From Thermodesulfobacteriota bacterium (lineage in GTDB: Bacteria; Desulfobacterota; Anaeroferrophillalia; Anaeroferrophillales; Tharpellaceae): a stretch of 64,000 bases of DNA. The position numbers and the translations under genes are program-made. The DNA is taken from positions 4,612-68,611 of the forward strand of contig JANTFH010000005.1 in NCBI GenBank assembly GCA_024763535.1, read 5' to 3'. The number at the start of each line of letters is the position of its first letter. Position 1 is the stretch's first letter. Under the pieces are notes generated by a model. That model saw only the letters and a list, made by a program, of their open reading frames with translations. It had not been told where the DNA came from and did no database searches. Below, piece after piece: positions 5,887-24,092 of the stretch.

Positions 5887-8100
5887 TTAATATTTGTACT
5901 CTTTGTCTCCCAGAGTTTTAATCGTACTGTGTCTCTGGAGTTGAGCCCTGGCCCGATCAAGCAGATCCGTGACCTTTTTAGTCAGTTCCTTGGCAAACTC
6001 AAGGTTGTGAATCGGGTTTCCGTCCAGAAGTTTAAGGTTCTTCTCGGCGTTGTTGAGCAGATCCTGAGCCTCATACGTGTAATCTCCATTCTGGATGGCC
6101 AGCAGGACCGATCGCTGAGTTTGCTCAAGCTGTTCTTTAAGGCTGTCGATATTCAGGGCTTTAACCTCCTGACGCCACTCATCAACCATCTTGCCGTAGG
6201 CGGAGTCGTCATCGTGACACTCGATGCAGGCCTGTTTGAGGGCGGCATCGGTCATATCCTTCTCTTCGCTTACTTCAACATGGCAGTCGATACAGTTGAC
6301 CTCGGCCGCCATTGAACTGGGAGTTCCTTTGATGTCGCAACTTATTTCGTTGCAGGCATTCTGCCCGTGGATAAGATTGTAGGTGGCACTGTGACAATCT
6401 GCACACTCAACGGCACCGTTGCCGGAACCGTGGTGACAGTCTTTACAGTTTTTCAGGATCGTCCGGCCATGATGATCGCGGGAGCTGTGACAGTCGAGGC
6501 AGGCAAGGCCTTCGTCGACGACATGGACGTCATGCGGGAACTGAACATCACCGAAAGGTACGGGTTTGGTTTCAATACACTCAACACAGCTATGGCAGAG
6601 TTCGGTACAGCCGGTGGGTGAGGTAACCGCCTTAGCTTTGTAGGATGAATCGGCAATAGCTTTTGCTTTTTCACAACGTTCGCGACTGTCTGCGAGCAGA
6701 TTCAAAGCGTAATCGATGTTGTGGATTCCGTGGCTGTTCTTGACAAAGAGATAATTTTTCTGAGCTACCTCATAGAGTTTTGAGCCTTCTGGTGATTTTG
6801 TTTCGGTTAAAATCTGGTTGGTTTCGCGTAGGGTATTCGAGGTCTCGGCCAGCTCTTTTTTCAGAACCTCTTTCCAGTGCTTGGCCATATCGTCGTAACC
6901 GGCACCATGACACTCGGCACAGGATTTGATTAACTCATCAAAACCGGTACGTTTGAGTTTCCGGGTTTCACCATCGACATCATATACGGTCAGGTGACAG
7001 CTGGCACAGTCGAGGTGAGCCTTGTACATGCCGCTCGGCATCTCTTTAACATCCAGTCCGCCAACTCCGGCATACATGCTATGGACATTCTGGTGTTGAT
7101 CAAAGGTATGGCACTTGGCACAGTTGTGGTCATAGTGAAGCCCACTGTTGATTACCGCCGTTTTTATGATTCTCTGACGCTCCAGATACTTCGTCGATTT
7201 TTCGCGCGCGATATAGTGGTTGATATTGGCGTGGCAACGGAAACACTCAACCTTATGGGCAGTAACATGGTTGAAATGCATCTTTTCGCTGCTGTAACTG
7301 CCTTCCAGCAGATGAGGTTCGGAGTGACACTGGACGCAGACATTATCCATGACGTGGCCGTCACCGTAAATGATGCCGAAGTGACACTGCTCACAGTTAA
7401 CCCCGCGTTCGATGTAATCCTTGTGGACAAAAGGCTGATCCACATCCGCATCAACATATATCTTGGTTCGGTTTGAAGTATGGCAGGTCTGGCAGTCGGA
7501 AATCTCAAGATGGTTCTCTTTGTCGTAGAAGTGACACATGAAACAGGTGGTTTCCGTGACGGTGAGATGCTCACCCTGAACGATCTGGGAGTGGCAGCTG
7601 ACGCATTTCAGCTTTTTGCCGCGGCGCAGGTTGTCTAGATGGGTTTCATGGCTGAATTCGACCCCTTTGAAATTTACGGTGTTCTCTTTTAATTCGGTCA
7701 TCCCGTGACACCCATCTCGCAGACAGCTGGAATCGCTGATCTCGGTATGCGGCCGGGGGGGAGCCGTGCCGGTAATTTTCATAACTACATGTGTCTGAGC
7801 TTTCCATTTACCTTTGAGTTCGCCCCAGACGCCGGGCTCGAAATGACACTCAAGGCAACTGACTTCTTTATGGGAAGACTGTTTCCATGATTCGATATAG
7901 GAGTCCATGTTATGACACATACCACAGAATTTGTAGCTGGCGGTGGCCTTAAGGAGCAGGACGATCATTAGGATAAAGATACAGAAAGAAACAGCAAAGA
8001 ACACCAGCAGTCCTTTCCAGTGTTCGCGGGTACCGCGAGCCGCTTCGTGGCTGAAGTCACGGATAAAATCAATTAATAAATTCCACATTCTTCGAATCAT
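5887..8100 (-). CDS. Membrane-anchored multiheme cytochrome c with NapC/NirT-like N-terminus (16 CxxCH plus CX4CH and CX3CH)
   Basis: N-terminal TM helix then FCGMCHNM...SWKQSSHKEVSCLECH. 16 canonical motifs counted by hand, plus CLRDGCH and CTELCH. AAGGAG RBS. Confidence 0.92.
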   Translation of the reverse strand: MIRRMWNLLIDFIRDFSHEAARGTREHWKGLLVFFAVSFCIFILMIVLLLKATASYKFCGMCHNMDSYIESWKQSSHKEVSCLECHFEPGVWGELKGKWKAQTHVVMKITGTAPPRPHTEISDSSCLRDGCHGMTELKENTVNFKGVEFSHETHLDNLRRGKKLKCVSCHSQIVQGEHLTVTETTCFMCHFYDKENHLEISDCQTCHTSNRTKIYVDADVDQPFVHKDYIERGVNCEQCHFGIIYGDGHVMDNVCVQCHSEPHLLEGSYSSEKMHFNHVTAHKVECFRCHANINHYIAREKSTKYLERQRIIKTAVINSGLHYDHNCAKCHTFDQHQNVHSMYAGVGGLDVKEMPSGMYKAHLDCASCHLTVYDVDGETRKLKRTGFDELIKSCAECHGAGYDDMAKHWKEVLKKELAETSNTLRETNQILTETKSPEGSKLYEVAQKNYLFVKNSHGIHNIDYALNLLADSRERCEKAKAIADSSYKAKAVTSPTGCTELCHSCVECIETKPVPFGDVQFPHDVHVVDEGLACLDCHSSRDHHGRTILKNCKDCHHGSGNGAVECADCHSATYNLIHGQNACNEISCDIKGTPSSMAAEVNCIDCHVEVSEEKDMTDAALKQACIECHDDDSAYGKMVDEWRQEVKALNIDSLKEQLEQTQRSVLLAIQNGDYTYEAQDLLNNAEKNLKLLDGNPIHNLEFAKELTKKVTDLLDRARAQLQRHSTIKTLGDKEYKY

Positions 8101-8684: not shown

Positions 8685-9041
8685 ATGTCGCATGATTATA
8701 TTCCCGTTCTGGTAATGATGATTGTCGGTGTTGGTTTCGGTGTTGTGGCCGTGGTCTTATCTCGATTGCTTGGGCCGAACCGGAAATCAAGAGTCAAAAA
8801 AGAGACCTATGAATGTGGTATGACGACGATCGGTGCCTCCTATGTGCAGACGCCGATCAAATATTATGTTGTGGCTCTGTTATTTCTCGTATTTGATCTT
8901 GAATGTGTTTTTCTCTACCCCTGGGCTGTACATTATAAGAGTCTGGGGTTTTTTGGTTTCGTCGAGATGGTCCTCTTTATGGTGGTCCTCTTCGTCTGTT
9001 ATGTTTATGTCTGGAAAAAGGGAGCCTTGGAATGGGAATAG
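8685..9041 (+). CDS. nuoA: NADH-quinone oxidoreductase subunit A
   Basis: [31 protein letters not shown]. Confidence 0.97.
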
Positions 9042-9562
9042 AGAGTGCATTAAAGGGCGACGGATTCCTGGTCACCAACCTTGAGAGTTTAGTTAACTGG
9101 GGACGTAAGAATTCGATCTGGCCTTGTACCTTCGGTCTGGCCTGATGCGCTTTGGAGATGATGGCTACCAGTTTGGCTAGCTACGATATCGCCCGCTTCG
9201 GTTCCGAAGTTTTTCGGCCGTCGCCGCGTCAGTCCGATCTGATGATTGTTGCCGGTACCCTGACAAAAAAGATGTCGGTAATGGTGCAGAGAATTTATGA
9301 GCAGATGGCGGAGCCCCGCTGGGTTATCGCGATGGGTGCCTGTGCTTCCTGCGGCGGGGTTTTTCAGAGTTATTCCGTGGTTCAGGGGGTCGATCAGGTT
9401 ATTCCGGTTGATGTCTATGTTCCCGGTTGTCCGCCGCGGCCGGAAGCGCTGCTGGCCAGCGTGATGAAACTTCAGGACAAGATTATGAAAGATAAATTCA
9501 GTGATCGTCCTGATTATGAAGAGCCTTCAAGCAGCAAATCCGACATTGTCAGTTTGTGTTAG
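9032..9562 (+). CDS. nuoB: NADH-quinone oxidoreductase subunit B with in-frame TGA (putative Sec38) at 9143-9145
   Basis: Open from ATG 9032, overlapping the nuoA end: [45 protein letters not shown]...[13 protein letters not shown]...GACASCGG...[11 protein letters not shown]. 176 aa. Confidence 0.93.
9162..9183 (+). promoter_or_regulatory. SECIS-like hairpin after nuoB TGA
   Basis: TGGCTA-CCA-[GTT]-TGG-C-TAGCTA. The loop G is 26 nt after the UGA. Folded by eye. Confidence 0.6.
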
Positions 9563-9598: not shown

Positions 9599-10096
9599 AT
9601 GGAAAATGCGAAAGTAGTAGAGCAGATTAAAGGTAAATTTGCTGATGCGATCATCGAGGATATCGAGTTTCGCGGCGATTTGACCATCGTGGTCAGTCTT
9701 GAGAAGCTGCATGAGATTATGCTCTATATCCATGATGATGAGTCTTTGCATTACGACCTGTTGTCGGATGTGATCGGGATTGACAGACTGCCCCGTGAGC
9801 CCCGCTTTGAGATTGTCTATGTTCTCCACTCAATGGATGACTTCAGGCGCCTGATGGTCAAGGTTATGGTTGATGTCGATATCGCTGTTCCGACCGTAAC
9901 CGACATCTGGAAATCGGCAGACTGGCCGGAGCGTGAGGTCTATGACCTTCTGGGCGTGAGTTTCAGTGATCACCCGGATCTACGCCGGATCCTGATGTGG
10001 GATGATTTTGATGGCCACCCTTTGCGCAAGGACTTTCCTCTGAAAGGTAAGGACTTCGATAAAAAATGGGACCCATCAACCATTAAGGTTATGTAA
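9599..10096 (+). CDS. nuoC: NADH-quinone oxidoreductase subunit C
   Basis: ADWPEREVYDLLGVSFSDHPDLRRILM...GHPLRKDFPL. Confidence 0.97.
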   Translation: MENAKVVEQIKGKFADAIIEDIEFRGDLTIVVSLEKLHEIMLYIHDDESLHYDLLSDVIGIDRLPREPRFEIVYVLHSMDDFRRLMVKVMVDVDIAVPTVTDIWKSADWPEREVYDLLGVSFSDHPDLRRILMWDDFDGHPLRKDFPLKGKDFDKKWDPSTIKVM

Positions 10097-10232
10097 GTTT
10101 AAGGTTTGTGAATTAGAATCTGGTGCCTGCGGATTCCCTTTGATTATGAAAACCGGGGAATATCTTGATGACGGCACTTACTTGCGGGCAACACCCGCGT
10201 TAGTGATAACTATATCATAGAGGTTGGTAGCG

Positions 10233-11405
10233 ATGGCAGAAGGTAAAATATTGACCATCAACATGGGTCCGCATCATCCGGCGACTCACGGGGTCTTGCG
10301 CCTGGTTCTGGAGCTTGATGGCGAGACGATCGTCAAGGTCACGCCCCATATCGGGCATTTGCACCGGGGGATAGAGAAGCTTGCGGAAAACATGAATTAC
10401 CAGCAGGTTATTCCGCTTACTGACCGTTTTGACTACACTGCGGCATCACTCAACAATCTTGGTTACTGTACTGCGGTAGAGAAACTTCTGGGAATTGAAG
10501 TTCCGAAACGGGCTCAGTATATTCGCGTCATCATGTCCGAGCTGGCTCGGATCATGGGTCATCATCTCTGGATCGGCAGCCATGCTCTCGACATCGGGGC
10601 GATGACCGTAGTTTTCTACGCCTTCCGTGATCGTGAAATGATCATGAATATGGTTGAAGAGGTTTCCGGTTATCGTTTAACCCCTTCTTATATGCGGGTC
10701 GGTGGCTTGGCCCGGGATATCACCCCGGAATTCATTCGCTGTCTGCGCGAATTTATCAAATGGTTCCCGACCGCCGTGGCCGGCTACAATACATTGCTGA
10801 CCGATAATATCATCTGGCGCAAAAGAACCCAGGATATTGGGGTTATTTCAGCTGAAGATGCCATTAACTATGGTTTGACCGGGCCTTCGTTGCGGGGCTC
10901 CGGAGTCGCTTATGATCTACGTAAGGTGAAACCTTACAGCAGTTATGATGACTTCGATTTTCAGGTTCCGGTTGGTGACAAGGGTGATGTTTACGACCGT
11001 TATCTGGTGCGCATGGAAGAGTTTATTCAGTCGCTTAATATTATTGAACAGGCGCTTGAAAACTTGCCGGAAGGGCCGGTAAACGTTGATAACCCGCTGA
11101 TCTTCAACCCTCAGATTGAGGATGTGCAGGAAGATATCAGTGCCCTGATCCGTCGTTTTAAGATTCAGTGCCAGGGGCCTGAGATTCCTGAAGGTGAAAT
11201 CTATCATGCGGTTGAAGGGTCCAAGGGTGAACTCGGATTCTATCTGGTTGGTGACGGTACTGAACATCCCTACCGGATGAAGGTTCGCTCCCCCTGTTTT
11301 ATCCTGGTCAGCGCCTTGGAAAAATTGATGCTTGGTCACATGATCGCCGACGCGATTGCGATTATCGGCAGCATCGATATCGTTTTGGGTGAGATTGACC
11401 GCTAG
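10233..11405 (+). CDS. nuoD: NADH-quinone oxidoreductase subunit D
   Basis: NMGPHHPATHGVLRL, HRGIEKL, DRFDY, C-terminal GSIDIVLGEIDR. No NiFe-binding CxxC motifs. Start may be 10224 (TTG) or 10233 (ATG). Confidence 0.97.
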   Translation: MAEGKILTINMGPHHPATHGVLRLVLELDGETIVKVTPHIGHLHRGIEKLAENMNYQQVIPLTDRFDYTAASLNNLGYCTAVEKLLGIEVPKRAQYIRVIMSELARIMGHHLWIGSHALDIGAMTVVFYAFRDREMIMNMVEEVSGYRLTPSYMRVGGLARDITPEFIRCLREFIKWFPTAVAGYNTLLTDNIIWRKRTQDIGVISAEDAINYGLTGPSLRGSGVAYDLRKVKPYSSYDDFDFQVPVGDKGDVYDRYLVRMEEFIQSLNIIEQALENLPEGPVNVDNPLIFNPQIEDVQEDISALIRRFKIQCQGPEIPEGEIYHAVEGSKGELGFYLVGDGTEHPYRMKVRSPCFILVSALEKLMLGHMIADAIAIIGSIDIVLGEIDR

Positions 11406-11493
11406 TTAGGGAAAGTGTAAATTTTTTAAGTTAGTTCGTAAGTTAGTTTGAGTTGCGGAGTCTGTTTTCGCATTAGTGAATGGGAGTCGGTTG

Positions 11494-13446
11494 ATGGCTG
11501 AGATTTTATTTAGTTCCTGGGGTGGCGAGGTAGTTGATAACCGCCAAAAAGATGGCCAGGACTTTGAGCCGGTTAATACAGTTGATTTACCGGAATATTT
11601 CAGACAGGATGAAGCGGTTAAGGCTCTTATGGGCTGGTACGGCATCGTTATTCGTGACCCGGAAACCGATATCGTCGATTTGAGTCGGGTCTATATCCAG
11701 GAAGTTCAGAATAAATCCTGTGGTAAATGTTTTCTCTGTCGGATCGGCACCCGGGTTATGGCTGAGACTCTGACACGAATCTGTAATGGACAGGGCAAAT
11801 CTGAAGATCTTGAAATCTTAAAACGCCTGGCTGATTCAATTCGTGAATCCTCGAAATGTAATATCGGCCAATCCGGGCCCTTGCCGATTCTCGACGCTTT
11901 AGAGCATTTCGCCGCTGATTTCGAAGCTGCAATCAGCGCACAAAAGAGTGTTGCTGCCGGTACCTACCACTCAAAACTGACCGCACCCTGTATGGATGCC
12001 TGCCCGATCCATTTAGATATTCCCAATTATGTAGAGTGTATAAAAGAGGGACGTTTTGCCGAATCGCTTGATATTATTCGGGAAAAACTGCCGTTGCCGG
12101 GAGTTGTCGGCCGCGTCTGTGTGCGCCCCTGCGAAGAGCACTGCCGGCGTATGAATCTTGATGCTCCGATTTCGATCAAATTTCTCAAGCGTTTTGTTGC
12201 CGATTATGAACTGAGCAAAGGCAAAGAGCCTGAATTTGCAATTGAACCTTCAGAAAAAACCGGGAAGGTTGCGATTGTCGGCGCCGGCCCCAGCGGTGCA
12301 ACCTGTGCTTTCCATCTTGCAAAGATGGGCCATGATGTTACCGTTTATGAGCGTTTCGATGAACCCGGCGGCATGTCGGCCATGGGGATTCCTGATTATC
12401 GCCTGCCGCGCCCTATTCTTAGAGAAGAGGTTGACCGCATTGAGCGTATGGGGGCGACCTTTAATTACGAAACCACGGTCGGTAAAGATATTAAACTCTC
12501 CCAGCTTGAAGCCGATAACGATGCCGTGTTTATCGCTATCGGGGCCCAGATGGGTACGACGATGGGGGTTGAAGGTGAAGAAGAGAACTATGCCGGTTAT
12601 ATCTCCGGGGTGCAGTACCTGTTGGATATCAACCAGGGTCGGGATCCTTATCCTGAAGGTAAAAAAGTAGCAGTCATCGGCGGCGGCAACGTGGCGATCG
12701 ACTGTGTGCGCTGCTCCTTCCGGGTGGGCAAGGACGATGTCAATCTTATCTATCGCCGGACCAAAAATGAAATGCCGGCTGATGATGTTGAAATCCATGA
12801 CGCGGAAGAGGAAAAAGTCAATTTTCACTATCTTACGCATCCGGTTAAAATTCTGGCGGAAAACGGTAAAGTTGTTGGTCTGCGCTGTGTTAAAATGGAG
12901 TTAGGCGAGCCCGACGAGAGTGGTCGCCGGCGGCCGCAGCCGATTGAAGGTTCGGAATTTGTTATAGAGTGCGACATTGTGGTCCCGGCGATTGGCCAGA
13001 CGATGGATTTGTCTCTGCTTGAAGGACGTGAAGACGTTAAAACCACCCGCTGGAAAACGATTGTCGTTGACGAAGTAACTAAACAGAGCGACCAGCCGAA
13101 AATCTTCTCCGGCGGTGACTGTGAAACCGGTCCCGGGGCTTTGATTACTGCTTGTGCCGGAGGGCGGACGGCCGCTTTTAATATCGATAAGCTGATCAAT
13201 GGTGAACCGCTGGATTATACCGAAGATGACTATTTTGATAAATTTTTCAGTAAGGTTAAGGTCTTTGACCCGGCTGAAGATATTGGATTCTTAGGCGGTC
13301 GCGAGCGGAAAGAGCTGGAGATGCTTGATCCCGACACCCGCAAATTCACCAACGCTGAAGTGGAACAGGGCTTTTCGATTAACGATGCCATGGCTGAGGC
13401 CGATCGCTGTCTGCGCTGTTATCGGGTGGCAACTGTAAGAGTATAA
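11494..13446 (+). CDS. SfrB-like NAD(P)H oxidoreductase: NuoF-type 4Fe-4S domain plus GltD/dihydropyrimidine-dehydrogenase-like FAD/Fe-S domain
   Basis: N-terminus MAEILFSSWGGEVVDNR (resembles Geobacter SfrB, from memory). SCGKCFLCRIG...SKCNIG, APCMDACPIH...GRVCVRPCEEHC, VGAGPSG, IGGGNVAIDC...YRRT, C-terminal EADRCLRCY. GGGAG RBS before ATG 11494. Confidence 0.85.
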   Translation: MAEILFSSWGGEVVDNRQKDGQDFEPVNTVDLPEYFRQDEAVKALMGWYGIVIRDPETDIVDLSRVYIQEVQNKSCGKCFLCRIGTRVMAETLTRICNGQGKSEDLEILKRLADSIRESSKCNIGQSGPLPILDALEHFAADFEAAISAQKSVAAGTYHSKLTAPCMDACPIHLDIPNYVECIKEGRFAESLDIIREKLPLPGVVGRVCVRPCEEHCRRMNLDAPISIKFLKRFVADYELSKGKEPEFAIEPSEKTGKVAIVGAGPSGATCAFHLAKMGHDVTVYERFDEPGGMSAMGIPDYRLPRPILREEVDRIERMGATFNYETTVGKDIKLSQLEADNDAVFIAIGAQMGTTMGVEGEEENYAGYISGVQYLLDINQGRDPYPEGKKVAVIGGGNVAIDCVRCSFRVGKDDVNLIYRRTKNEMPADDVEIHDAEEEKVNFHYLTHPVKILAENGKVVGLRCVKMELGEPDESGRRRPQPIEGSEFVIECDIVVPAIGQTMDLSLLEGREDVKTTRWKTIVVDEVTKQSDQPKIFSGGDCETGPGALITACAGGRTAAFNIDKLINGEPLDYTEDDYFDKFFSKVKVFDPAEDIGFLGGRERKELEMLDPDTRKFTNAEVEQGFSINDAMAEADRCLRCYRVATVRV

Positions 13447-13532: not shown

Positions 13533-16208
13533 ATGGTCACGTTGACGATTGACGGCAAAGAAGTCACCGTCCCCCAGGGAACGACCATCCTTGAGGCGGC
13601 CCGGAGTGTCGATATCAGAATTCCGACACTCTGTTACCACGATCGTTTGAACCCTATCGGTTCATGTCGGATGTGTGTAGTTGAGATCGAAGGTTATACG
13701 CACCCGATGGCAGCCTGTACAACTCCGGTTGATGATGGGATTGAGGTTGTAACTAAATCTGATCGTCTGACTAGGATTCGTCAGGATTCGTTGAAACTGA
13801 TTCTGGTTAATCATCCGCTTGACTGTCCGGTTTGTGATAAGGGCGGCGAGTGCCTGTTGCAGGATTTGACCTACGAATTCGGGATTGATCAGGTTGAGTA
13901 TAAAGCGGCAAAAGTCGAGCGTGAATCACAGTATGCGACTCCGCTGATTCGTTACTGGCCCGACCGCTGTATCATGTGCCTGCGCTGCGTTACCGCCTGT
14001 CAGGAGATTAAGGGAATCGGCGCCATCAGTATTCAGGGAGACGGTTACGGAGCCCAGGTAGTGGCCGTAGATGCCGAGAAGTGTCAATCCTGCGGTGAGT
14101 GTCTGCAGGTCTGTCCGACCGGGGCCCTGACTGAGGATTTGAGCCGTTATAAAGGTCGCACCTGGCTGGTTGACAGAGTGCCGACCACCTGTACCTACTG
14201 CGGTTGCGGTTGTCAGCTTGAACTTAATGTTCAAAATGACCGGGTTATCGCCGTAACCACCCGGGAGGGGGTTGGCGTTAATCATGGCAGTCTCTGTGTC
14301 AAGGGCCGTTTCGGTTACGAATTTATCAACAGTGATGAACGGTTGACCAAACCGCTGATCAAGAAAAACGGCAAATTTGAAGAGGCGAGCTGGGATGAAG
14401 CTCTGGACCTGGTAGCCAGTAAGTTCTCTGCGATCAAAGAGGAACACGGCCCCGGTGCCCTGGCCGGCTTGACCTCGGCCCGTTGTACCAATGAAGAGAA
14501 CTACCTTTTCCAAAAATTTATGCGCGCGGCGGTCGGGACCAATAATGTCGATCACTGCGCCAGGCTCTGACACTCCTCAACTGTGGCCGGACTGGCCGCA
14601 ACGTTTGGCAGTGGAGCAATGACCAACCCGATTGCCGATGTCCTGAAATCAGAGACCGTATTGGTAACCGGAACTAATACCACGGAAAATCATCCGATTT
14701 TCGCCAATTACCTGAAAGAGGCCGTGCTTAAACACGGCACCAAGATTCTGGTGATCGATCCGCGGCGCATCGATCTGGTCGATTACGCCGAGCTCTACCT
14801 CCAGCCGAAACCGGGTACCGATATTGCCTGGATTAACGGTTTGATGCATATTATCATCAAGGAGGGCTGGGCGGCCCAGGATTATATCGACGAACGTTGT
14901 GAAGGTTTCGATGAATTTAAAAGCAATCTCGAAAAATTCACACCTGAATATGTTTCTGGAATTACCGGTCTGACCGAAGATGAGCTCTATGCCGCGGCCA
15001 AACTCTATGGCCAGGCGGCTCCGGCCTCAATCCTTTACGCCATGGGTATCACCCAGCATACCAGCGGTACCGATAATGTTAAATCATTAGGTAACCTGGC
15101 GATGCTTTGTGGTAACATGGGAGTTGCCGGCGGCGGCGTCAATCCGCTGCGGGGCCAGAACAATGTGCAGGGTGCCTGCGATATGGGTGGTCTGCCGAAT
15201 GTCTACACCGGTTATCAGAAGGTCGATGTTGATGAAGTGCGGGAGAAATTCGCCAAGGCCTGGGGGCTTGCGGCGGAGGCTATGGATTCAGCACCCGGTC
15301 TGAAACTGACCGAAATGTTTCCGGCAGCGGCCGAGGGTAAAGTCAAGGCTCTCTATATTATGGGTGAGAACCCGCTGGTCAGTGATCCCGATTTAACTCA
15401 TATTGAACACTGTATCGAAGCCCTTGATTTCTTCGTTGTGCAGGATATCTTTCTAACCGAAACGGCTAAGAAAGCCGATGTCGTGCTGCCCGGAGTCTCC
15501 TTTGCTGAAAAAGATGGAACCTTCGTCAATTCCGAGCGGGTTGTACAGCGGGTTCGTAAAGCATTAACGATTCCCGGCGAAGCTCGTGAAGACAGTGCTA
15601 TTATTGCCGATATCTCAACCCGTATGGGATATGAGATGAAATATGAAAGTGCCGCCGATATCATGAAAGAGATCAACGCTGTGACCCCGAGTTACGGCGG
15701 CATCACTTATGAACGTTTGGAAAACGGCGGCCTGGCCTGGCCCTGCCCCGACAGTGAACATCCCGGGACACCAATTCTGCATGTTGATAAATTTGCCCGC
15801 GGTAAAGGTCTCTTTTTCGCGATAGATCATCAGCCGCCGGCTGAACTCTGCGATAATGAGTATCCGTTTGTACTGTCGACCGGCCGTGTTCTCTCTCATT
15901 TCCATACCGGAACCATGACCCGCAAGGGTTCCGGCCTGAATAAGGTTCATCCTGAAGTCAAGGCTGAGATCAACCCTGAAGATGCCGCGCGTCTGGGGAT
16001 TGAAGCGGATGATCGTCTTAAGATTACCTCCCGCCGGGGTTCGATCGAGGTTAAAGCCATGCTCAGTGACCGTCCGGCAGCCGGGGTGGTATTTGTACCC
16101 TTTCACTTTCATGAAGTTGCAGTTAACCGTCTGACCAACGCGGCTCTCGATCCGGTTGCCAAAATTCCGGAATATAAGGTCTGCGCGATTAAGGTTGAAA
16201 AGGCTTAG
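13533..16208 (+). CDS. fdhF: Selenocysteine-containing formate dehydrogenase alpha subunit with NuoG-like Fe-S N-terminus; Sec346 at TGA 14568-14570
   Basis: ORFs 13533-14570 and 14583-16208 join in frame as [29 protein letters not shown]. Also PLRGQNNVQGACDMG, IPTLC..GSCRMC, HPLDCPVCDKGGEC, two further Cys clusters, CTYCGCGC..CVKG and IPEYKVCAI. 891 aa. Confidence 0.96.
14582..14600 (+). promoter_or_regulatory. SECIS hairpin of the FDH alpha gene
   Basis: TGTGGCC-[GGACT]-GGCCGCA, stem starting 11 nt after the UGA, with a G-starting loop. Confidence 0.75.
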
Positions 16209-16265: not shown

Positions 16266-17252
16266 ATGCTGGAATTTATGACCATATTGATAATCAAAAC
16301 GTTGGTGGCATTCACCGTCAGCCTGCTGATTGTGGCCTATTCGACCTGGATCGAGCGTAAAGTTTTGGGTCATGTGCAGCTGCGACACGGGCCGCGTCGA
16401 GTCGGTTTCCATGGTCTTCTGCAGCCTATAGCCGATGGTATCAAAGGTTTTTTCAAAGAGGAGCTGATTCCTGATAACGCCGATAAACCGCTCTTTCTGC
16501 TGGCACCGATTATCAGTATCGGAGCGGCGGTTACATTAATTGTAATTGTTCCTTTCGGGGATAAGATTACCATTATGGGGCACGAAATAACCCTTTATCT
16601 GACTGATCTTGATGTCGGTATTCTCTTCGTTCTCGGAATTTCGACCATCGGCTCCTACGGTGGTATCCTCGGGGGCTGGTCCTCCGGTAATAAATACGGG
16701 GTCATCGGCGGTCTGCGTGGATCGGCCCAGATGATCAGTTATGAACTCTCCCTGGCATTGGCGGTAATTGCTGTAGTTATGGTCAGCGGTTCGTTGAGCC
16801 TGATCGATATCGTTAACTCTCAAACCGGACTCTGGAACATCGTCAAACAGCCGTTTGCCTTTGTCCTTTTTATTATCTGCGGCCTGGCCGAACTCAACCG
16901 GACGCCGTTTGATATGCCCGAAGCCGAGGCCGAACTGGCCTGTGGTTTCAATGTTGAGTACAGTTCCATGAAGTTCGCCCTTTTCTTTATGGCGGAATAC
17001 TGTCATATGTTTGTCTTTGCCGCGCTGGTGACGACCCTCTTCCTGGGTGGTTGGCATGGTCCCTTTATCGACGGGCCGCACTGGTTTTTCCTCAAGTGTT
17101 TTGTGATTATCTTTTTCTGCGTCTGGGAACGTTCGACCTTTCCGCGTTTGCGTTATGACCAGGTTATGAGCTTCGGCTGGAAAATTTTGCTGCCCTTCGG
17201 TCTTCTGAATATTCTTCTGACCGGGCTCTGGATGCTGATTTTCAACATGTAG
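16266..17252 (+). CDS. nuoH: NADH-quinone oxidoreductase subunit H
   Basis: ERKVLGHVQLRHGP..GLLQPIADGIK, AQMISYE, AELNRTPFDMPEAEAEL, PRLRYDQVM. Confidence 0.97.
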   Translation: MLEFMTILIIKTLVAFTVSLLIVAYSTWIERKVLGHVQLRHGPRRVGFHGLLQPIADGIKGFFKEELIPDNADKPLFLLAPIISIGAAVTLIVIVPFGDKITIMGHEITLYLTDLDVGILFVLGISTIGSYGGILGGWSSGNKYGVIGGLRGSAQMISYELSLALAVIAVVMVSGSLSLIDIVNSQTGLWNIVKQPFAFVLFIICGLAELNRTPFDMPEAEAELACGFNVEYSSMKFALFFMAEYCHMFVFAALVTTLFLGGWHGPFIDGPHWFFLKCFVIIFFCVWERSTFPRLRYDQVMSFGWKILLPFGLLNILLTGLWMLIFNM

Positions 17253-17306
17253 GATTAACCCAAACTGAGATAGTATTAGATTTAAGAATATAAATTTGAG
17301 GATAAT

Positions 17307-17783
17307 ATGGCTGACAAGGATTACATACTCAATATCAGTGACCGGCGCCCGACGGGTAAATATATCACGCCGATTCTGAAAGGCCTGGGTTACACGCTGA
17401 AGAATTTCTTCAGTAAGCCGATTACGATAAAATATCCGACCGAGCGCCGTGAAGTCAGCGACCGCTGGCGGGGCCTGCATCGTTTGAAAGTGGATGATCG
17501 GGGGGCTTTGAAATGTGTCGCCTGCGGCCTTTGCGCAAAGATCTGTCCGCCTAAGGCGATCACCATTGTGCCCTACGAAGAGGCCGGCGAAACCCGTTAT
17601 CCGAAAGAGTTTGTGATTGACGAGCTGCGTTGTATCTTCTGCGGCTTCTGTCAGGAAGCCTGTCCTAAAGATGCGATTGAGCTGACGAAAGTTTACGATT
17701 TTGTGGATTATAAACGCGAAGACTTTATCTTCGATATCGAAAAACTGAAAACCCCGGAAAAATATATCTTCAACGGCAAATAG
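17307..17783 (+). CDS. nuoI: NADH-quinone oxidoreductase subunit I
   Basis: TIKYP..RWRGLH, CVACGLCAKICP and CIFCGFCQEACP. Confidence 0.96.
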   Translation: MADKDYILNISDRRPTGKYITPILKGLGYTLKNFFSKPITIKYPTERREVSDRWRGLHRLKVDDRGALKCVACGLCAKICPPKAITIVPYEEAGETRYPKEFVIDELRCIFCGFCQEACPKDAIELTKVYDFVDYKREDFIFDIEKLKTPEKYIFNGK

Positions 17784-17796
17784 TGGGAGTAGATTG

Positions 17797-18306
17797 ATGG
17801 AACTGGTATTTTTGTTGATATGCGGTGGAGTTGCGGTAATCGCCTCGCTGCTGGTTATCTTTGCTCGCTCCACCCTGCACAGTGCCCTGTGGATGGTTCT
17901 CTCCTTTTTTATGGTAGCGATAATCTACGTTCTGCTGCACGCTCAGTTTCTGGCTATGCTTCAGGTTATTGTCTACGCCGGAGCGATTATGATGTTTATT
18001 GTCTACGCCATCATGATGCTGAATCTGCGTCAGGAAGCCAAATCCAAGGTCGCAACCCGAATCTCCAAGGTAGTTGGAGTCGGGGCTCTGATTGTGCTTT
18101 TTCTCGAACTTACTCTGATCGGCGTAAGTCACAATATGGCCACAATACAGGGTCCGGTAACGGATAAGCTTGTGGCCACCTACGGCCGGGTAGCGGTAAT
18201 CTCAAATTTTCTTTTTTCCGACTATCTGCTGCCGTTCGAGGTCGCATCCATTCTCCTGACTGCGGGTGTTGTCGGGGCCGTAGTTCTGGCTAAACGTGAA
18301 AAATAG
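17797..18306 (+). CDS. nuoJ: NADH-quinone oxidoreductase subunit J
   Basis: AQFLAMLQVIVYAGAIMMFIVY and YLLPFEVASILL. Confidence 0.96.
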   Translation: MELVFLLICGGVAVIASLLVIFARSTLHSALWMVLSFFMVAIIYVLLHAQFLAMLQVIVYAGAIMMFIVYAIMMLNLRQEAKSKVATRISKVVGVGALIVLFLELTLIGVSHNMATIQGPVTDKLVATYGRVAVISNFLFSDYLLPFEVASILLTAGVVGAVVLAKREK

Positions 18307-18317
18307 AGGGAAAGGTA

Positions 18318-18623
18318 ATGGTTGATAATCAAAGTATATATCTGACGTTTGCGGTTATTCTGTTTGTCATCGGCGCGGCCGGTGCCATCTGCCGCCGTAA
18401 TGCGATTGTTGTCTTTATGTGTATTGAAATTATGCTGGCCGGAGTCAGTATTGCATTTGTAACCTTCAGTCGTGCCAATCACTCTCTGGACGGTATCTTT
18501 ATGGTTCTGTTTGTTATGGCGGTTGCTGCCGCAGAAGCAGCGGTCGGTCTGGCGATTTTTCTTTTGATGTATCGCAAACAGGGCTCGATCGATCTGGATA
18601 AGTTTAATCTGTTGAAGTGGTAG
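18318..18623 (+). CDS. nuoK: NADH-quinone oxidoreductase subunit K
   Basis: RRNAIVVFMCIEIML and VAAAEAAVGLAI. Confidence 0.97.
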   Translation: MVDNQSIYLTFAVILFVIGAAGAICRRNAIVVFMCIEIMLAGVSIAFVTFSRANHSLDGIFMVLFVMAVAAAEAAVGLAIFLLMYRKQGSIDLDKFNLLKW

Positions 18624-18724
18624 ATCTGTTTAGCTGAAGCTCGATCTTATTGTGTAAATTTAGAATCTCGTAAACTGAGTGTTTTGAGATAACGTTTTAA
18701 GATATTTTTTAAGGAGATAGAGGT

Positions 18725-20815
18725 ATGTTCGATTATATCTGGTTGGTACCGGTCTTCCCGGCCATCGGAGTTTTGATCAACGGTCTGCTTGGACGTCGTC
18801 TAGAGGCGATTAACAAGAGTTTGATCCATTGGATCGCCTGCGGTGCGATCGCCCTCTCCTATATCGTTACCTGTACTATTTTCTACCAGCTCCTGCAGCT
18901 CCCTGAAGCTGAACGATTTTATCAGGTGACCTGTTTTTCCTGGATCAACAGCGGGGTCTTACAGACTTATATTGCTTATCAGATTGATCCCCTGTCAATG
19001 ATGATGGCGATGTTTGTTATCGGGGTCGGCTTTCTCATCCATGTCTATTCGATTGGCTATATGGATGGCGATCCGGGTCGTTACTACCGCTTCTTTGTTT
19101 ATTTGAATCTTTTTATGTTCTCGATGATCAATCTGATTCTCGCCAACAACTATCTTTTGATGTTCTTAGGCTGGGAAGGGGTTGGGTTGTGTTCCTATCT
19201 TTTGATCGGCTTCTGGTTTGATGACGAGGCCAATGCAATTGCCGGCAAAAAAGCTTTTATTACCAACCGGGTGGGTGATTTCGCTTTTTTGATCGGGATG
19301 TTTCTGCTCTTTACCGGACTGGGTGAACATGGTGTCTGGAGCCTGCAGTTTAACGAAGTGTTCAGTAACGTTCACTACCTTTCAACCAGTCAGGCAACCG
19401 CCATCTGTCTCCTCTTTTTTATCGGTTGTACGGCCAAGTCAGCTCAGATTCCACTCTATGTCTGGCTGCCCGATGCCATGGCCGGCCCGACTCCGGTCTC
19501 TGCCCTGATCCATGCCGCTACTATGGTGACCTCGGGTGTCTATATGATCACCCGCTCCAATATCCTATATTCTATGTCACCTCTGGCGATGGGGGTTGTG
19601 GCGACGGTTGGAGCTTTGACGGCGCTGTTTGCCGCGTCGATCGGCCTGGTGCAGAATGATATCAAAAAAGTTCTGGCCTATTCAACTGTGAGTCAGCTCG
19701 GTTATATGTTCCTAGGGCTCGGTGTCGGTGCCTTCGCCGCCGGTATGTTTCATGTTTTAACCCATGCATTCTTTAAGGCTCTTATGTTTTTGGGATCTGG
19801 TGCGGTTATTCACTCTATGCATCATGCTTATCATAAAGTGCATTCCCATGATGATGCTCAGGATATGCGAAATATGGGCGGATTGAAGAGTAAGACCCCC
19901 ATAACTTATTGGACCTTTCTGGTTGGCGCATTGGCAATTGCCGGGGTTCCGGGACTTTCCGGCTTCTTCAGTAAGGATGAAATTCTCTGGCAGGCATACA
20001 GCAGTCCACAGGGCCACTGGTTGCTCTGGCTTATAGGTGCAATGGCTGCGGGAATGACTGCATTTTATATCTTCCGATTAATTTTTATGACATTCTTTAA
20101 CGATTGCCGGGCAGGAGACGCGGCTGAGCATATCCATGAATCGCCTCTGACCATGACGATACCGCTGATGGTTCTGGCCGTGCTGGCAGCTTTTGGTGGT
20201 TATCTAGGCGTTCCGCATGCTTTGGGTGGCAGCAATCTTTTTGAGCACTTCCTGGAGCCGGTAATGGGAATGGGTGATGGGAAACTGTTGCAGGATGCCA
20301 CGACTGCGGTTGCCCACGGTGCCCATCATGCCGTGCATGCAGCTGCCGGTCACATTACTGAGGCCGCACACGCTGTTGCCGGGCATGCCGAGGGTGGTGC
20401 CCATCATGTTGGACATGAACCGCTCTGGGTTGAGTATTTATTGATGGCCGTTTCCGTTGCTTTAGCTTTCGGTGGCATCTTTGTCGCCTATATGTTTTAC
20501 ATTGTTAAACGTGAACTGCCGGTGGCTCTGGCGGAGAAATTTTCCTTTATTCACCGTCTGTTGCTGAATAAATGGTATATTGACGAACTCTACGATGTGG
20601 TTATTATTTCACCCCTGCGTGGTTTCAGTTATTTTCTCTGGAAAGGGATTGATGTCGGAGTGGTTGATTACATCGTCAACGGAGTTGCCCGGATAGTTGG
20701 CTGGGGAAGCAGTGCCGTGCGCTACATACAGTCCGGTTATGTGCAGAGTTACGCGGTTTCAGTCGTATTCGGTACGGTGGTGCTGCTGGCCTACTACTTC
20801 TTGAAGGCACTCTAG
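18725..20815 (+). CDS. nuoL: NADH-quinone oxidoreductase subunit L
   Basis: GWEGVGLCSYLLIGFW, KSAQIPLYVWLPDAMAGPTPVSALIHAATMV, IKKVLAYSTVSQLGYM. His-rich insert near the C-terminus. Confidence 0.97.
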   Translation: MFDYIWLVPVFPAIGVLINGLLGRRLEAINKSLIHWIACGAIALSYIVTCTIFYQLLQLPEAERFYQVTCFSWINSGVLQTYIAYQIDPLSMMMAMFVIGVGFLIHVYSIGYMDGDPGRYYRFFVYLNLFMFSMINLILANNYLLMFLGWEGVGLCSYLLIGFWFDDEANAIAGKKAFITNRVGDFAFLIGMFLLFTGLGEHGVWSLQFNEVFSNVHYLSTSQATAICLLFFIGCTAKSAQIPLYVWLPDAMAGPTPVSALIHAATMVTSGVYMITRSNILYSMSPLAMGVVATVGALTALFAASIGLVQNDIKKVLAYSTVSQLGYMFLGLGVGAFAAGMFHVLTHAFFKALMFLGSGAVIHSMHHAYHKVHSHDDAQDMRNMGGLKSKTPITYWTFLVGALAIAGVPGLSGFFSKDEILWQAYSSPQGHWLLWLIGAMAAGMTAFYIFRLIFMTFFNDCRAGDAAEHIHESPLTMTIPLMVLAVLAAFGGYLGVPHALGGSNLFEHFLEPVMGMGDGKLLQDATTAVAHGAHHAVHAAAGHITEAAHAVAGHAEGGAHHVGHEPLWVEYLLMAVSVALAFGGIFVAYMFYIVKRELPVALAEKFSFIHRLLLNKWYIDELYDVVIISPLRGFSYFLWKGIDVGVVDYIVNGVARIVGWGSSAVRYIQSGYVQSYAVSVVFGTVVLLAYYFLKAL

Positions 20816-20895
20816 AAACAGCTCTAAATTTAACGAAATTTTTTAATACAATTTATATCCCAAAGTTTAAATAGATTCCGCAGGGAGAGAGATAG

Positions 20896-22479
20896 ATGAA
20901 TGAACTAGGTTTTCCGATAATCAGCCTTGTGACCTTTTTTCCGATCTTCGGGGCGTTGATCCTGATGTTTATCGATAAAGAGGCCAAAGATACGCTCCGG
21001 GGCACTGCCATGGTTTTTGCCATGATTGAGTTCTTTATCTCTCTGCCGATCATCTTCGCATTTCAAAGCGGTACTGCAGATATGCAGTTCGTGGAGCGCT
21101 ACACCTGGATTAAGAGTGCCGGTTTAAGTTATTATATCGGTCTGGACGGTATCAGTCTCTGGATCTTTATGCTGACCACCTTCTTAACTCCGATCTGTGT
21201 TTTGTGTTCCTGGAACTATATTCAGAAACGGGTCAAAGAGTTCATGATCTGCCTCCTGTTACTGGAGACGGCCATGCTGGGGGCTCTGGTCTCCCTGGAC
21301 CTGATCCTTTTCTATATCTTCTGGGAACTGATGCTGATTCCGATGTATTTCCTGATCGGAGTCTGGGGTGGAGACAATCGGATCTATGCCGCAGTTAAGT
21401 TTTTTATCTATACCGCCGCCGGTTCGGTCTTCATGCTGCTCTCGATATTCTTTCTCTACTATTACAACCATAAGGTCACCGGCGTCTATACCTTTGATCT
21501 GCTGGAACTTTACAAACTTAATATTCCGGTATCGACCCAGTTCTGGCTCTGTCTGACCTTTTTTGTCTCGTTCGCCATTAAGGTACCGATGTTTCCGCTC
21601 CACACCTGGCTGCCGGATGCTCATGTCCAGGCTCCGACGGCCGGTAGTGTAATTTTGGCAGGTGTTCTCTTGAAAATGGGAACTTACGGTTTCATGCGCT
21701 TTGCGATTCCGCTCTTTCCCTACGCCAGTCATCAGTTTACACCGGTTATTGCGACATTAGCGGTAATCGGCATCATCTACGGGGCTCTGGTAGCCCTGAT
21801 CCAGCCTGATATGAAGAAACTGGTTGCCTATTCCAGTGTCAGTCACTTGGGTTATGTCATGCTCGGTATCTTTGCTTTCAATATGCAGGGGGTTGAGGGT
21901 GGTCTCTATCAGATGCTCAACCATGGTATCAGTACCGGCGCTCTCTTCCTGATCGTCGGTATGCTTTATGAGCGTCGTCATACCCGGATGATCAAGGATT
22001 TCGGTGGTATCGCCAAGGTGATGCCGGTCTATGCCACCTTTTTCATGATTATGACCCTGTCATCAATTGCGGTTCCCGGAACCAACGGTTTCGTCGGCGA
22101 GTTTATGATCCTGGTCGGAGCTTTCCGCTCAATTCCGATGCATGCTGTTTTTGCCACTTCCGGGGCCATCCTCGGGGCGCTTTATATGCTCTGGATGTAT
22201 CAGCGGGTGATGTTTCAGCCCCTCGATAAAGAGGAAAACAAGGTCTTGAAAGATCTCAATGCCCGGGAAATTGTGACTCTGCTGCCGCTGGCGATACTGG
22301 TTTTCGTTATGGGTTTCTTTCCTGGTTATTTCATCAATAAGATGGACGCTTCATGTCAGCACTTCCTGAAAAACTATAATCAGCAGGTGGCCATGTATGA
22401 ACAGCAGGTTGAAGATGGCAGTGCCGCCAAACTGGCCGCGGTGATGAGTGACAATAATTTAGAGAAGAAGATCGACTGA
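20896..22479 (+). CDS. nuoM: NADH-quinone oxidoreductase subunit M
   Basis: FWELMLIPMYFLIG, KVPMFPLHTWLPDAHVQAPTAGSVILAGVLLKMG. Confidence 0.97.
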   Translation: MNELGFPIISLVTFFPIFGALILMFIDKEAKDTLRGTAMVFAMIEFFISLPIIFAFQSGTADMQFVERYTWIKSAGLSYYIGLDGISLWIFMLTTFLTPICVLCSWNYIQKRVKEFMICLLLLETAMLGALVSLDLILFYIFWELMLIPMYFLIGVWGGDNRIYAAVKFFIYTAAGSVFMLLSIFFLYYYNHKVTGVYTFDLLELYKLNIPVSTQFWLCLTFFVSFAIKVPMFPLHTWLPDAHVQAPTAGSVILAGVLLKMGTYGFMRFAIPLFPYASHQFTPVIATLAVIGIIYGALVALIQPDMKKLVAYSSVSHLGYVMLGIFAFNMQGVEGGLYQMLNHGISTGALFLIVGMLYERRHTRMIKDFGGIAKVMPVYATFFMIMTLSSIAVPGTNGFVGEFMILVGAFRSIPMHAVFATSGAILGALYMLWMYQRVMFQPLDKEENKVLKDLNAREIVTLLPLAILVFVMGFFPGYFINKMDASCQHFLKNYNQQVAMYEQQVEDGSAAKLAAVMSDNNLEKKID

Positions 22480-22622
22480 TTTAATCTTTATTTAAGGTGG
22501 AACCCGGCCCGAACTGTTTATATTAAGTTTCCGGAAATCCGGGATACATGCCGGCTGGCTTATCCCAGACTGTGCAATATACAAATTATTATATTTTTTA
22601 AGATAAATTTTGGAGGAGAGTG

Positions 22623-24092
22623 ATGGAAATGCTGGATTTTGTTGTCCCGGCACTCAATCTTAAGGCAATTCTGCCGCAGTTGATCCTGGCCTTGACGGCA
22701 TTGACCGTACTATTGGTCGATGTCTTTGCCAAAGGCAAGGGTAAAACCTCCCTGGGAGCCTTGTCACTGGCGGGGGTGGTTGCCGCTTTAATTACTCTCA
22801 TGCTGTCTCGCGGCAGTCATGAATCGGCCTATGCCGGTATGCTGATGGCGGATGGCTTCGGTTTTTTCATCACCCTGATTGTCTGTATCGTTACCTTTTT
22901 GACGATTCTTGCTTCGATCAATTATGAACGTATCTGTCCTGATATCAAGGCCGGTGAGTTTTATTGCCTGATGCTGTTTGCCGCTTTCGGGATGTCCTTT
23001 ATGGGGAATGCCGGCAACCTGATTATGATCTTCGTGGCTCTGGAAACCATGTCTATCTCGATCTATGTTCTGGCCGGCTTCAAGACCTCTGATGCGAAAT
23101 CGATCGAGTCGGCATTGAAATATTTTCTCCTGGGAGCCTTTGCCTCGGGATTTCTGCTCTTCGGATTTGCCCTGGTTTACGGTGCCGCCGGAACCCTGGA
23201 TATCGTCAAACTCGGTGCCTTCTTCACTGCTAACCCCGACTCACTGCATCATCCTATGGTTTTAGGCGGTATGGCATTGATGACGGTGGGCTTCGGCTTT
23301 AAGGTTGCCATGTTCCCGTTTCACATGTGGACTCCGGATGTCTATGAAGGGGCTCCGACCGTGGTTACCGGATTTATGGCCACCGGGGTCAAGGCCGCAG
23401 CCTTTGCCGCGTTGGTAAGGGTATTTTTCGTTGGTTTTGCGCCGCTGCAGGCCGACTGGACGACGATCATGTGGGTAGCGGCGTTGCTGACGATGACCAT
23501 CGGCAACCTGGTTGCGATCTCACAGACCAATATCAAACGGATGCTGGCCTATTCCAGTATCGCTCATGCCGGTTACCTTCTGGTCGGCTTTGTGGTCGGT
23601 ACCGAACTGGCCCGTTCCGGTATGCTCTTTTATCTTTTAGCCTACGCCTTTGCCAATATCGGAGCTTTTGCGGTAATCTCCGCCATGGGTAAAGATGGAG
23701 AAGAGTATACCGAGCTTAATGATTTCTCCGGGGCCGGTTTTAAATATCCCTTCCTGGGTCTGATGATGAGCATCTTTATCTTCTCCATGGCCGGGATTCC
23801 TCCGGCGGCGGGTTTTATGGGTAAATTCTTCATCTTCTCGGAAGCGATTAAATCCGGATATATCTGGCTGGCGATCTTCGGAGTCATCAACAGCGTAATC
23901 TCGCTTTACTACTATCTTGGGGTTATCGTGCGCATGTACTTCAAGGAGCCCGAGCGCGAAATCACAATCATGGCTCCGGCCGGAACCATGATTGCCGCTC
24001 TCTCGATTGCCGCTTTCGCGGTTCTGCAGATGGGAATCTTTCCCTCCTATATCTGGGATCTGGCAAGAGAGTCGGTGAAGATGATTATGTAG
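22623..24092 (+). CDS. nuoN: NADH-quinone oxidoreductase subunit N
   Basis: ESALKYFLLGAFAS, FKVAMFPFHMWTPDVYEGAP, NIKRMLAYSSIAHAGY. Confidence 0.97.
   Translation: MEMLDFVVPALNLKAILPQLILALTALTVLLVDVFAKGKGKTSLGALSLAGVVAALITLMLSRGSHESAYAGMLMADGFGFFITLIVCIVTFLTILASINYERICPDIKAGEFYCLMLFAAFGMSFMGNAGNLIMIFVALETMSISIYVLAGFKTSDAKSIESALKYFLLGAFASGFLLFGFALVYGAAGTLDIVKLGAFFTANPDSLHHPMVLGGMALMTVGFGFKVAMFPFHMWTPDVYEGAPTVVTGFMATGVKAAAFAALVRVFFVGFAPLQADWTTIMWVAALLTMTIGNLVAISQTNIKRMLAYSSIAHAGYLLVGFVVGTELARSGMLFYLLAYAFANIGAFAVISAMGKDGEEYTELNDFSGAGFKYPFLGLMMSIFIFSMAGIPPAAGFMGKFFIFSEAIKSGYIWLAIFGVINSVISLYYYLGVIVRMYFKEPEREITIMAPAGTMIAALSIAAFAVLQMGIFPSYIWDLARESVKMIM

Follow-up and report, generated by a model that had tools for sequence, protein, structure and literature searches.

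The nuoB gene of a Thermodesulfobacteriota bacterium contains an in-frame TGA at the position of the first of two tandem cysteines that bind cluster N2 of respiratory complex I, which raises the questions of whether this codon is read as selenocysteine and what selenium would contribute at this site. The gene is located in the stretch of 64,000 nucleotides that was analysed here (the window). A preliminary description of the window had assigned the TGA to the first cysteine of the FGLACCxxEM motif and had proposed selenocysteine as an N2 ligand. The features relevant to this proposal are the following, with the type of evidence in brackets.

8685..9041, plus strand: nuoA (ORF, HMM).
9032..9562, plus strand: nuoB, 176 amino acids on read-through, with the N2 ligands U38, C39, C104 and C133 (ORF, family HMMs, alignment).
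9143..9145, plus strand: in-frame TGA, codon 38 of nuoB, predicted selenocysteine (sequence, alignment, cross-genome conservation).
9162..9183, plus strand: predicted bacterial SECIS upper stem with the apical loop GTT at 9171-9173 (or AGTTT at 9170-9174), within codons 44-51 (folding, conservation).
9599..11405, plus strand: nuoC (9599-10096) and the nuoD ORF (10224-11405), both intact and belonging with nuoB to the quinone module (ORF, HMM).
11476..13446, plus strand: fusion of a NuoF-type Fe-S domain with a GltD-like flavoprotein, at the place of nuoEF (HMM).
13533..16208, plus strand: formate dehydrogenase alpha subunit whose N-terminus is of the NuoG Fe-S type, at the place of nuoG, with a TGA at 14568-14570 (U346) followed by a hairpin of its own (HMM, read-through).
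16266..24092, plus strand: nuoH, nuoI, nuoJ, nuoK, nuoL, nuoM and nuoN, open frames that complete the membrane arm, with nuoJ and nuoK assigned by position and size and not by HMM (ORF, HMM).

The letters TTC GGT CTG GCC TGA TGC occupy positions 9131-9148 of the plus strand, and residue 38 of the deduced protein aligns gap-free to Cys45 of Thermus Nqo6 and Cys63 of E. coli NuoB, which confirmed the placement of the TGA at the first tandem cysteine; by matched ranges the same residue corresponds to Cys85 of Yarrowia NUKM. The frame 9032-9562 comprises 37 open codons, a single TGA (codon 38) and 138 further codons, followed by TAG at 9560-9562, and from its start codon ATG at 9032 it shares 10 nt with the 3' end of nuoA, so that the upstream part of the gene is indeed open, NuoB-like and coupled to nuoA. 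The read-through product scored 237.9 bits with TIGR01957 (cut-off 142.7), 247.7 bits with NF005012 (cut-off 116) and 103.1 bits with PF01058 (cut-off 27), and its best match in the PDB had an E-value of 5e-68. The four N2 ligand positions 38, 39, 104 and 133 were invariant among 30 aligned homologues, with the entry P0001 carrying C for U, and the complete four-ligand set including the tandem pair is obtained from this gene solely on read-through of the TGA. AlphaFold models reached a pLDDT of 39 with the single sequence and of 58 with a 30-row alignment, values too poor for ligand geometry, and a Foldseek search with the latter model returned NuoB-family chains only, at an rmsd of about 8.5. 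As had been anticipated for standard annotation, the protein collection holds this NuoB as a piece of 37 amino acids along with one of 133, and its relatives as pieces of 121-134 amino acids.

The gene order nuoA-B-C-D, NuoF-type Fe-S/GltD-like flavoprotein, formate dehydrogenase with NuoG-type N-terminus and nuoH-N places nuoB alongside nuoA, nuoC, nuoD, nuoH, nuoI and the antiporter-like nuoL, nuoM and nuoN. A canonical NADH module of NuoE and NuoF was not found in the cluster, its slot being taken by the flavoprotein fusion and the formate dehydrogenase. The latter, read through its TGA at the usual selenocysteine position, scored 872.8 bits with TIGR01591 (cut-off 666.25). From this composition, the enzyme looks like a complex I-like system fed by formate or NAD(P)H, and the presence of a flavoprotein and an intact selenocysteine-type FdhA in the NuoEFG slot suggests that complex I of this lineage is fed by formate. 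Additionally, a second nuoB with two cysteines, 58% identical to the first, is located on contig C1 (38722-39231) of the source genome (G000), and this paralogue could serve under selenium shortage. Upstream of the nuo operon and divergent from it, positions 5887-8100 of the minus strand encode a multiheme cytochrome of 737 amino acids with a NapC/NrfH-like N-terminus and c7/c3 repeats. A UshA-like selenoprotein gene with a TGA at 3665-3667 lies at 3509-4975 of the plus strand and is fused to a c554-type cytochrome domain; on read-through it scored 368 bits with NF041198 (cut-off 275), ORF finders begin it after the TGA, and a second gene with the PCG-TGA-H pattern is present on contig C32 of the source genome.

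The conservation of the codon was determined at several taxonomic levels. Among 60 relatives, a nuoB orthologue was obtained from 21 genomes of the order, the source genome being one of them, and 20 of these 21 carry TGA at codon 38; the orthologue of G017, cut by a contig end, was read separately and is part of this count. The single exception (G018) has TGC in place of TGA at 93% identity to the source gene, and provides a close Cys/TGA pair of the kind that the preliminary description had proposed to look for. A pattern scan of GTDB yielded at least 118 NuoB sequences with TGA at the first cysteine among the 120 matches listed, a number that refers to related sequences and not to independent events; L085 and L153 matched the pattern without being NuoB and were dropped. 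The 80 listed matches with titles derive mostly from Nitrospirota (Thermodesulfovibrionales), Syntrophaceae, Thermodesulfobacteriaceae and other deltaproteobacteria, with two from Chloroflexota, and the GTDB matches listed also include a close homologue of 94% identity from Ca. Tharpella aukensis (L118). In an even sample of 401 genomes of the phylum, TGA occupied the first tandem cysteine in 30 cases, whereas it occupied the second in none.

Three side observations were made in these searches. The TGA-type nuoB at L098 belongs to a rearranged operon of the order B-D-I-A-C-H-J-K, and the same genome contains a second TGA-type nuoB in the usual order (L128). In three Nitrospirota loci (L060, L068 and L092) the NuoD match falls into two pieces separated by a gap of about 250-270 nt, which suggests that their nuoD contains an insertion around residue 290. 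Finally, nine nuoB stretches from JGI metagenomes (L248-L256) have a TGA at the fourth N2 cysteine; they are mutually unrelated and share no hairpin, which is consistent with sporadic errors.

The hairpin with a GTT loop that had been described at SECIS distance is present, with the stem 9162-9170/9174-9183 and the loop 25 nt after the UGA. For the source sequence alone, its folding energy gave no signal against dinucleotide shuffles (z from -0.50 to 0.06), and therefore synonymous recodings of the same peptide were used as null model; here the hairpin reached -10.1 kcal/mol compared with a mean of -5.8 kcal/mol, and one of 40 recodings was as good. The hairpin agrees with the bSECIS model of PMC13188914 (section 5), which specifies a loop of 3-9 nt with G in its first two positions and a spacing of 16-37 nt and which was used in an implementation of our own and not as bSECISearch. 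A loop of the type G[G/U] at 20-25 nt was present in 108 of 110 distinct TGA sequences but in only nine of 34 Cys sequences. The mean folding energy was -9.7 kcal/mol in TGA forms against -5.6 after recoding, and -6.2 kcal/mol in Cys forms against -5.8; values of -7.5 kcal/mol or lower in a 39-nt segment were reached by 77 of 110 TGA and 12 of 34 Cys sequences.

The sequence and register of the hairpin vary by clade, with loops such as GTT, AGTTC, CGGGA, GGA, AGGT and GTA, while its position is kept. Where the peptide TTGSSH is fixed, 36 TGA sequences encode it by four codon strings (31 of them identically), whereas 12 Cys sequences use 12 different strings. Likewise, pS in codons +5 to +14 was 0.141 in 23 TGA genes, compared with 0.742 further downstream, and the corresponding values in 12 Cys genes were 0.867 and 0.772, so that the hairpin region is frozen in TGA genes that are otherwise as mutually diverged as the Cys genes. 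These comparisons show a predicted G[G/U]-loop hairpin that persists only as long as codon 38 is UGA. Two Cys-coding genes nested among TGA genes, L203 (G257) and L232 (G527), still have the same hairpin codons as the TGA genes next to them and are probable recent reversions from selenocysteine to cysteine.

The machinery for selenocysteine insertion is encoded completely in the source genome: selA, selB and selD exceed their cut-offs, selD has a TGA at its own selenocysteine site, and a tRNA-Sec with G73 was detected at 70.3 bits, so that all four components named in the preliminary description (selA, selB, selC and selD) are present. Among 49 genomes that were inspected and that hold 50 of the at least 118 TGA loci, 47 contain selA, and neither selA nor tRNA-Sec was found in the remaining two (G455 and G459). 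The TGA, selB and tRNA-Sec also occur together in G383, a genome of 99% completeness on one contig. In the phylum sample, selA was detected in 31 of 33 TGA carriers and in 42 of 44 other genomes, and since the gene is nearly universal there, its co-occurrence is necessary but does not discriminate between selenocysteine and cysteine forms. With respect to the conserved TGA and its close Cys counterparts, the bSECIS-type hairpin, the full selenocysteine machinery and the split annotation, the central proposal of the preliminary description is well supported: UGA codon 38 of nuoB appears to be a real, conserved and SECIS-linked recoding site that is very probably read as selenocysteine, a high degree of confidence that is drawn from genomic evidence.

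In mechanistic terms, SelB would bind the hairpin and deliver Sec-tRNA at the UGA, yielding a NuoB of 176 amino acids whose N2 would be a [4Fe-4S] cluster held by one selenolate and three thiolates. A selenolate is harder to protonate than a thiolate and forms a longer bond to iron. According to an excerpt of PMC8042128, N2 is bound by four cysteines including the strained tandem pair C85/C86 (Yarrowia numbering) and donates electrons to quinone, and C85, the counterpart of U38, was the most mobile tandem ligand in a mutant with destabilised N2. Selenium may hence keep the strained, most mobile ligand of N2 bound and modestly shift the cluster potential; given that cysteine serves in many close relatives, this would be an optional improvement. 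Such stabilisation or fine tuning of N2 is the purpose that we prefer, with chances that we regard as about even. The rationale of a labile ligand is weakened by the intact reduced complex I of Thermus, for which an excerpt of PMC7434922 describes that no disconnection of a cysteine from N2 was seen.

The distribution of both states was analysed on an unrooted FastTree phylogeny of NuoB and NuoD with 146 rows (89 with TGA), in which the site and the following 17 residues were masked and sampling was enriched for TGA forms; it excludes the Chloroflexota rows, L085, L153, the Cys-Cys paralogue and any locus with too little nuoD. The selenocysteine and cysteine states interleave and require at least 19 changes on this tree, whose unrooted form gives no direction of gain or loss. 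In 11 hand-picked close pairs, no column of NuoB or NuoD was found to change together with the state (best column, three of 11), which argues against a large chemical change; since close relatives use cysteine without compensating changes, selenium would tune the enzyme rather than enable it. A broader and more tentative proposal, which we consider somewhat less probable than its opposite, is that many anaerobic Desulfobacterota and Nitrospirota possess a naturally selenolate-ligated N2 as an old state that retunes or stabilises the cluster for low-potential or reversible operation and has repeatedly been lost to cysteine.

The same observations, namely the numerous changes of state, the cysteine of G018 at 93% identity, the lack of compensating substitutions in the close pairs and the Cys-type paralogue in the source genome, would also suit a benefit that is regulatory or neutral. 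In this case, selenocysteine would be inserted likewise, the UGA would tie synthesis of the complex to the selenium supply alongside the selenocysteine-containing formate dehydrogenase, and the chemistry of N2 would be essentially unchanged; the difference concerns the purpose alone. This explanation is rather doubtful, although it is the strongest of the alternatives, as phyla whose hairpins differ in sequence all have the TGA restricted to one and the same ligand position. Moreover, TGA-type nuoB genes occur in operons with NuoG-type modules, with GltD/FDH-type modules or in headless nuoABCD-HIJKLMN form (e.g. G383 and G113), and in operons without an intact formate dehydrogenase or without an input module, coupling to that enzyme cannot be the reason.

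Two more specific suggestions of the preliminary description can be judged. It had envisaged a complex that depends on selenium at both ends of its electron wire, which fits the source operon with its TGA at 14568-14570 of the formate dehydrogenase gene but does not hold in general: the selenocysteine site of the dehydrogenase is present together with Cys-type NuoB in G018, G128, G380, G209 and G085 and is degenerate together with Sec-type NuoB in G375, G142, L051 and L102, and several relatives have a degenerate dehydrogenase part, have it relocated ahead of nuoA or lack it. With each site varying independently of the other, selenium at both ends characterises this lineage alone. The suggested adaptation to menaquinone turned out not to be specific, in that mqnC is present in the source genome but so is the Cys-Cys paralogue; furthermore, T. 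thermophilus uses menaquinone, as stated in an excerpt of PMC7434922, with a Cys-type NuoB, so menaquinone does not require selenocysteine.

The preliminary description had also named the insertion of cysteine at the UGA by a suppressor resembling tRNA-Sec, in which a selC* tRNA-Cys, SelB* and CysRS* would cooperate and N2 would keep four thiolates. According to an excerpt of PMC5389517, selC* tRNAs with U73 decode UGA as cysteine and occur in Thermodesulfobacteria, Thermodesulfovibrio and deltaproteobacteria, which are broadly the groups that also contain TGA-type nuoB genes; a selC* tRNA uses a SelB-type factor, so that a SECIS would be expected in this case as well, and as the source genome is 94.65% complete, a gene of such a system may be missing. 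The only tRNA of the source genome with the anticodon UCA, however, ends in G-CCA and thus has G73 instead of the U73 that marks selC*, as do the tRNA-Sec of G383, G009 and G474; one selB and one cysS exceeded the cut-offs and no second copy of either was found in this assembly, and the presence of SelA and SelD further speaks against suppression by cysteine. Insertion of cysteine by a selC*-type system thus finds no support in the source genome and is considered very improbable.

A pseudogene, or a peptide of 37 amino acids followed by a restarted protein of 133, is less probable still. It would explain why gene callers yield exactly these two pieces, and one outlier (L125 from G459, titled Ca. 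Udaeobacter) has the TGA without the hairpin of its clade, with selA, selB and tRNA-Sec not found in its genome; the TGA of L125 is probably a true nonsense change or an error. The restarted product would, however, be devoid of both tandem ligands, and the rest of the operon is open. With 13 family-level sequences, the 27 codons that precede the TGA gave a pN/pS of 0.076 and the region beyond the hairpin values of 0.03-0.06, which indicates that both halves of nuoB are under purifying selection, and the TGA is common to records from Desulfobacterota and Nitrospirota, including genomes with long contigs and intact operons (G383 and G474). A TGA private to this genome and under relaxed selection, which the preliminary description had named as evidence against its proposal, can thus be dismissed. 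The least credible explanation is an error of the assembly or a code in which UGA means Trp or Gly throughout the genome. Four sets of Logan contigs added little at the level of sequencing runs: one 125-nt contig of X1, possibly the source of the assembly, equals positions 9043-9167 with no differences but falls short of spanning the codon with 31 letters of flank. The same codon is found in independently assembled genomes, TGA closes 406 of the 1220 long open frames that code 11 yields for the source genome and hence is an ordinary stop, and homologues have cysteine at residue 38 and never Trp or Gly. Taken together, cross-genome conservation, the count of 30 against 0 in 401 genomes, purifying selection and the ordinary use of TGA as a stop make error, pseudogene and code change very unlikely.

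Few residues in bioenergetics are conserved as strongly as the N2 ligands, and the role of N2 in coupling is still debated. If the broader proposal of a natural selenolate ligand is true, an N2 ligand other than cysteine would be described for a respiratory complex I for the first time, and this cluster would carry a built-in 77Se probe. Matched Sec/Cys pairs of more than 90% identity, such as those of G000 and G018, would allow the part of the ligand in N2 potential, stability and quinone reduction to be probed. A widespread family would be added to the bacterial selenoproteome, and core respiration of sulphur-cycling anaerobes would potentially be selenium-dependent. Since public annotation splits or truncates nuoB in TGA genomes, complex I may be recorded as defective in them.

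Among the matches listed in a search of full-text literature outside subscription journals, there was no relevant report of selenocysteine in NuoB, complex I subunit B or cluster N2. NuoB/PF01058 is absent from the 119 families in Table 1 of the 2026 catalogue PMC13188914, in which 'Nuo' and 'complex I' have no occurrence and the entry 'NADH:ubiquinone oxidoreductase subunit E' refers to another family (PF02508). The excerpted main text of the BSepDB paper (PMC13326102) contains no mention of NADH, Nuo or quinone, and excerpts of PMC13510729, PMC5109826 and PMC10779653 report no selenocysteine-containing NuoB. NCBIfam 20.0 returned no Sec-specific NuoB model, and the best 120 full-length homologues of a Nitrospirota TGA form contained neither U nor X.

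Selenocysteine probably ligates the Fe-S cluster in MvhD or HdrA, and in [NiFeSe] hydrogenase it binds nickel in the large subunit, the homologue of NuoD, and not the cluster of the small subunit. MvhD/VhuD (PF02662), HdrA and the 2Fe-2S proteins of the Csac_0668 type, which PMC13188914 includes among the selenoproteins, set a precedent for selenocysteine at or near metal-binding cysteine motifs; these proteins and [NiFeSe] hydrogenase differ from NuoB in fold and complex, and none of them contains a quinone-reducing cluster. The selC* tRNA-Cys(UCA) system, as far as it is described in an excerpt of PMC5389517, resembles the present case in the decoding of UGA by a tRNA similar to tRNA-Sec and in overlapping taxa, but needs a tRNA with U73 and often selB* and cysS*, none of which was found in the source genome. 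Bacterial SECIS selenoproteins such as FdhA and SelD (PMC13188914, Table 1) are alike in the UGA at a conserved cysteine, the agreement with the bSECIS model and the presence of selABCD, whereas the residue predicted here is a ligand of an electron-transfer cluster in a proton-pumping complex and not a catalytic redox residue. The closest relatives are the Cys-type proteins NuoB, Nqo6, NUKM and NDUFS7 (PSST) (PF01058, TIGR01957; PDB 2fug_6, 7awt_B, 8e9g_B and 6gcs_K), which match in sequence, in the four ligand positions and in operon context but differ in the first tandem ligand, here encoded by a TGA with a SECIS-type hairpin behind it, and by this distinction the TGA-type NuoB proteins probably constitute a new selenoprotein family within complex I.
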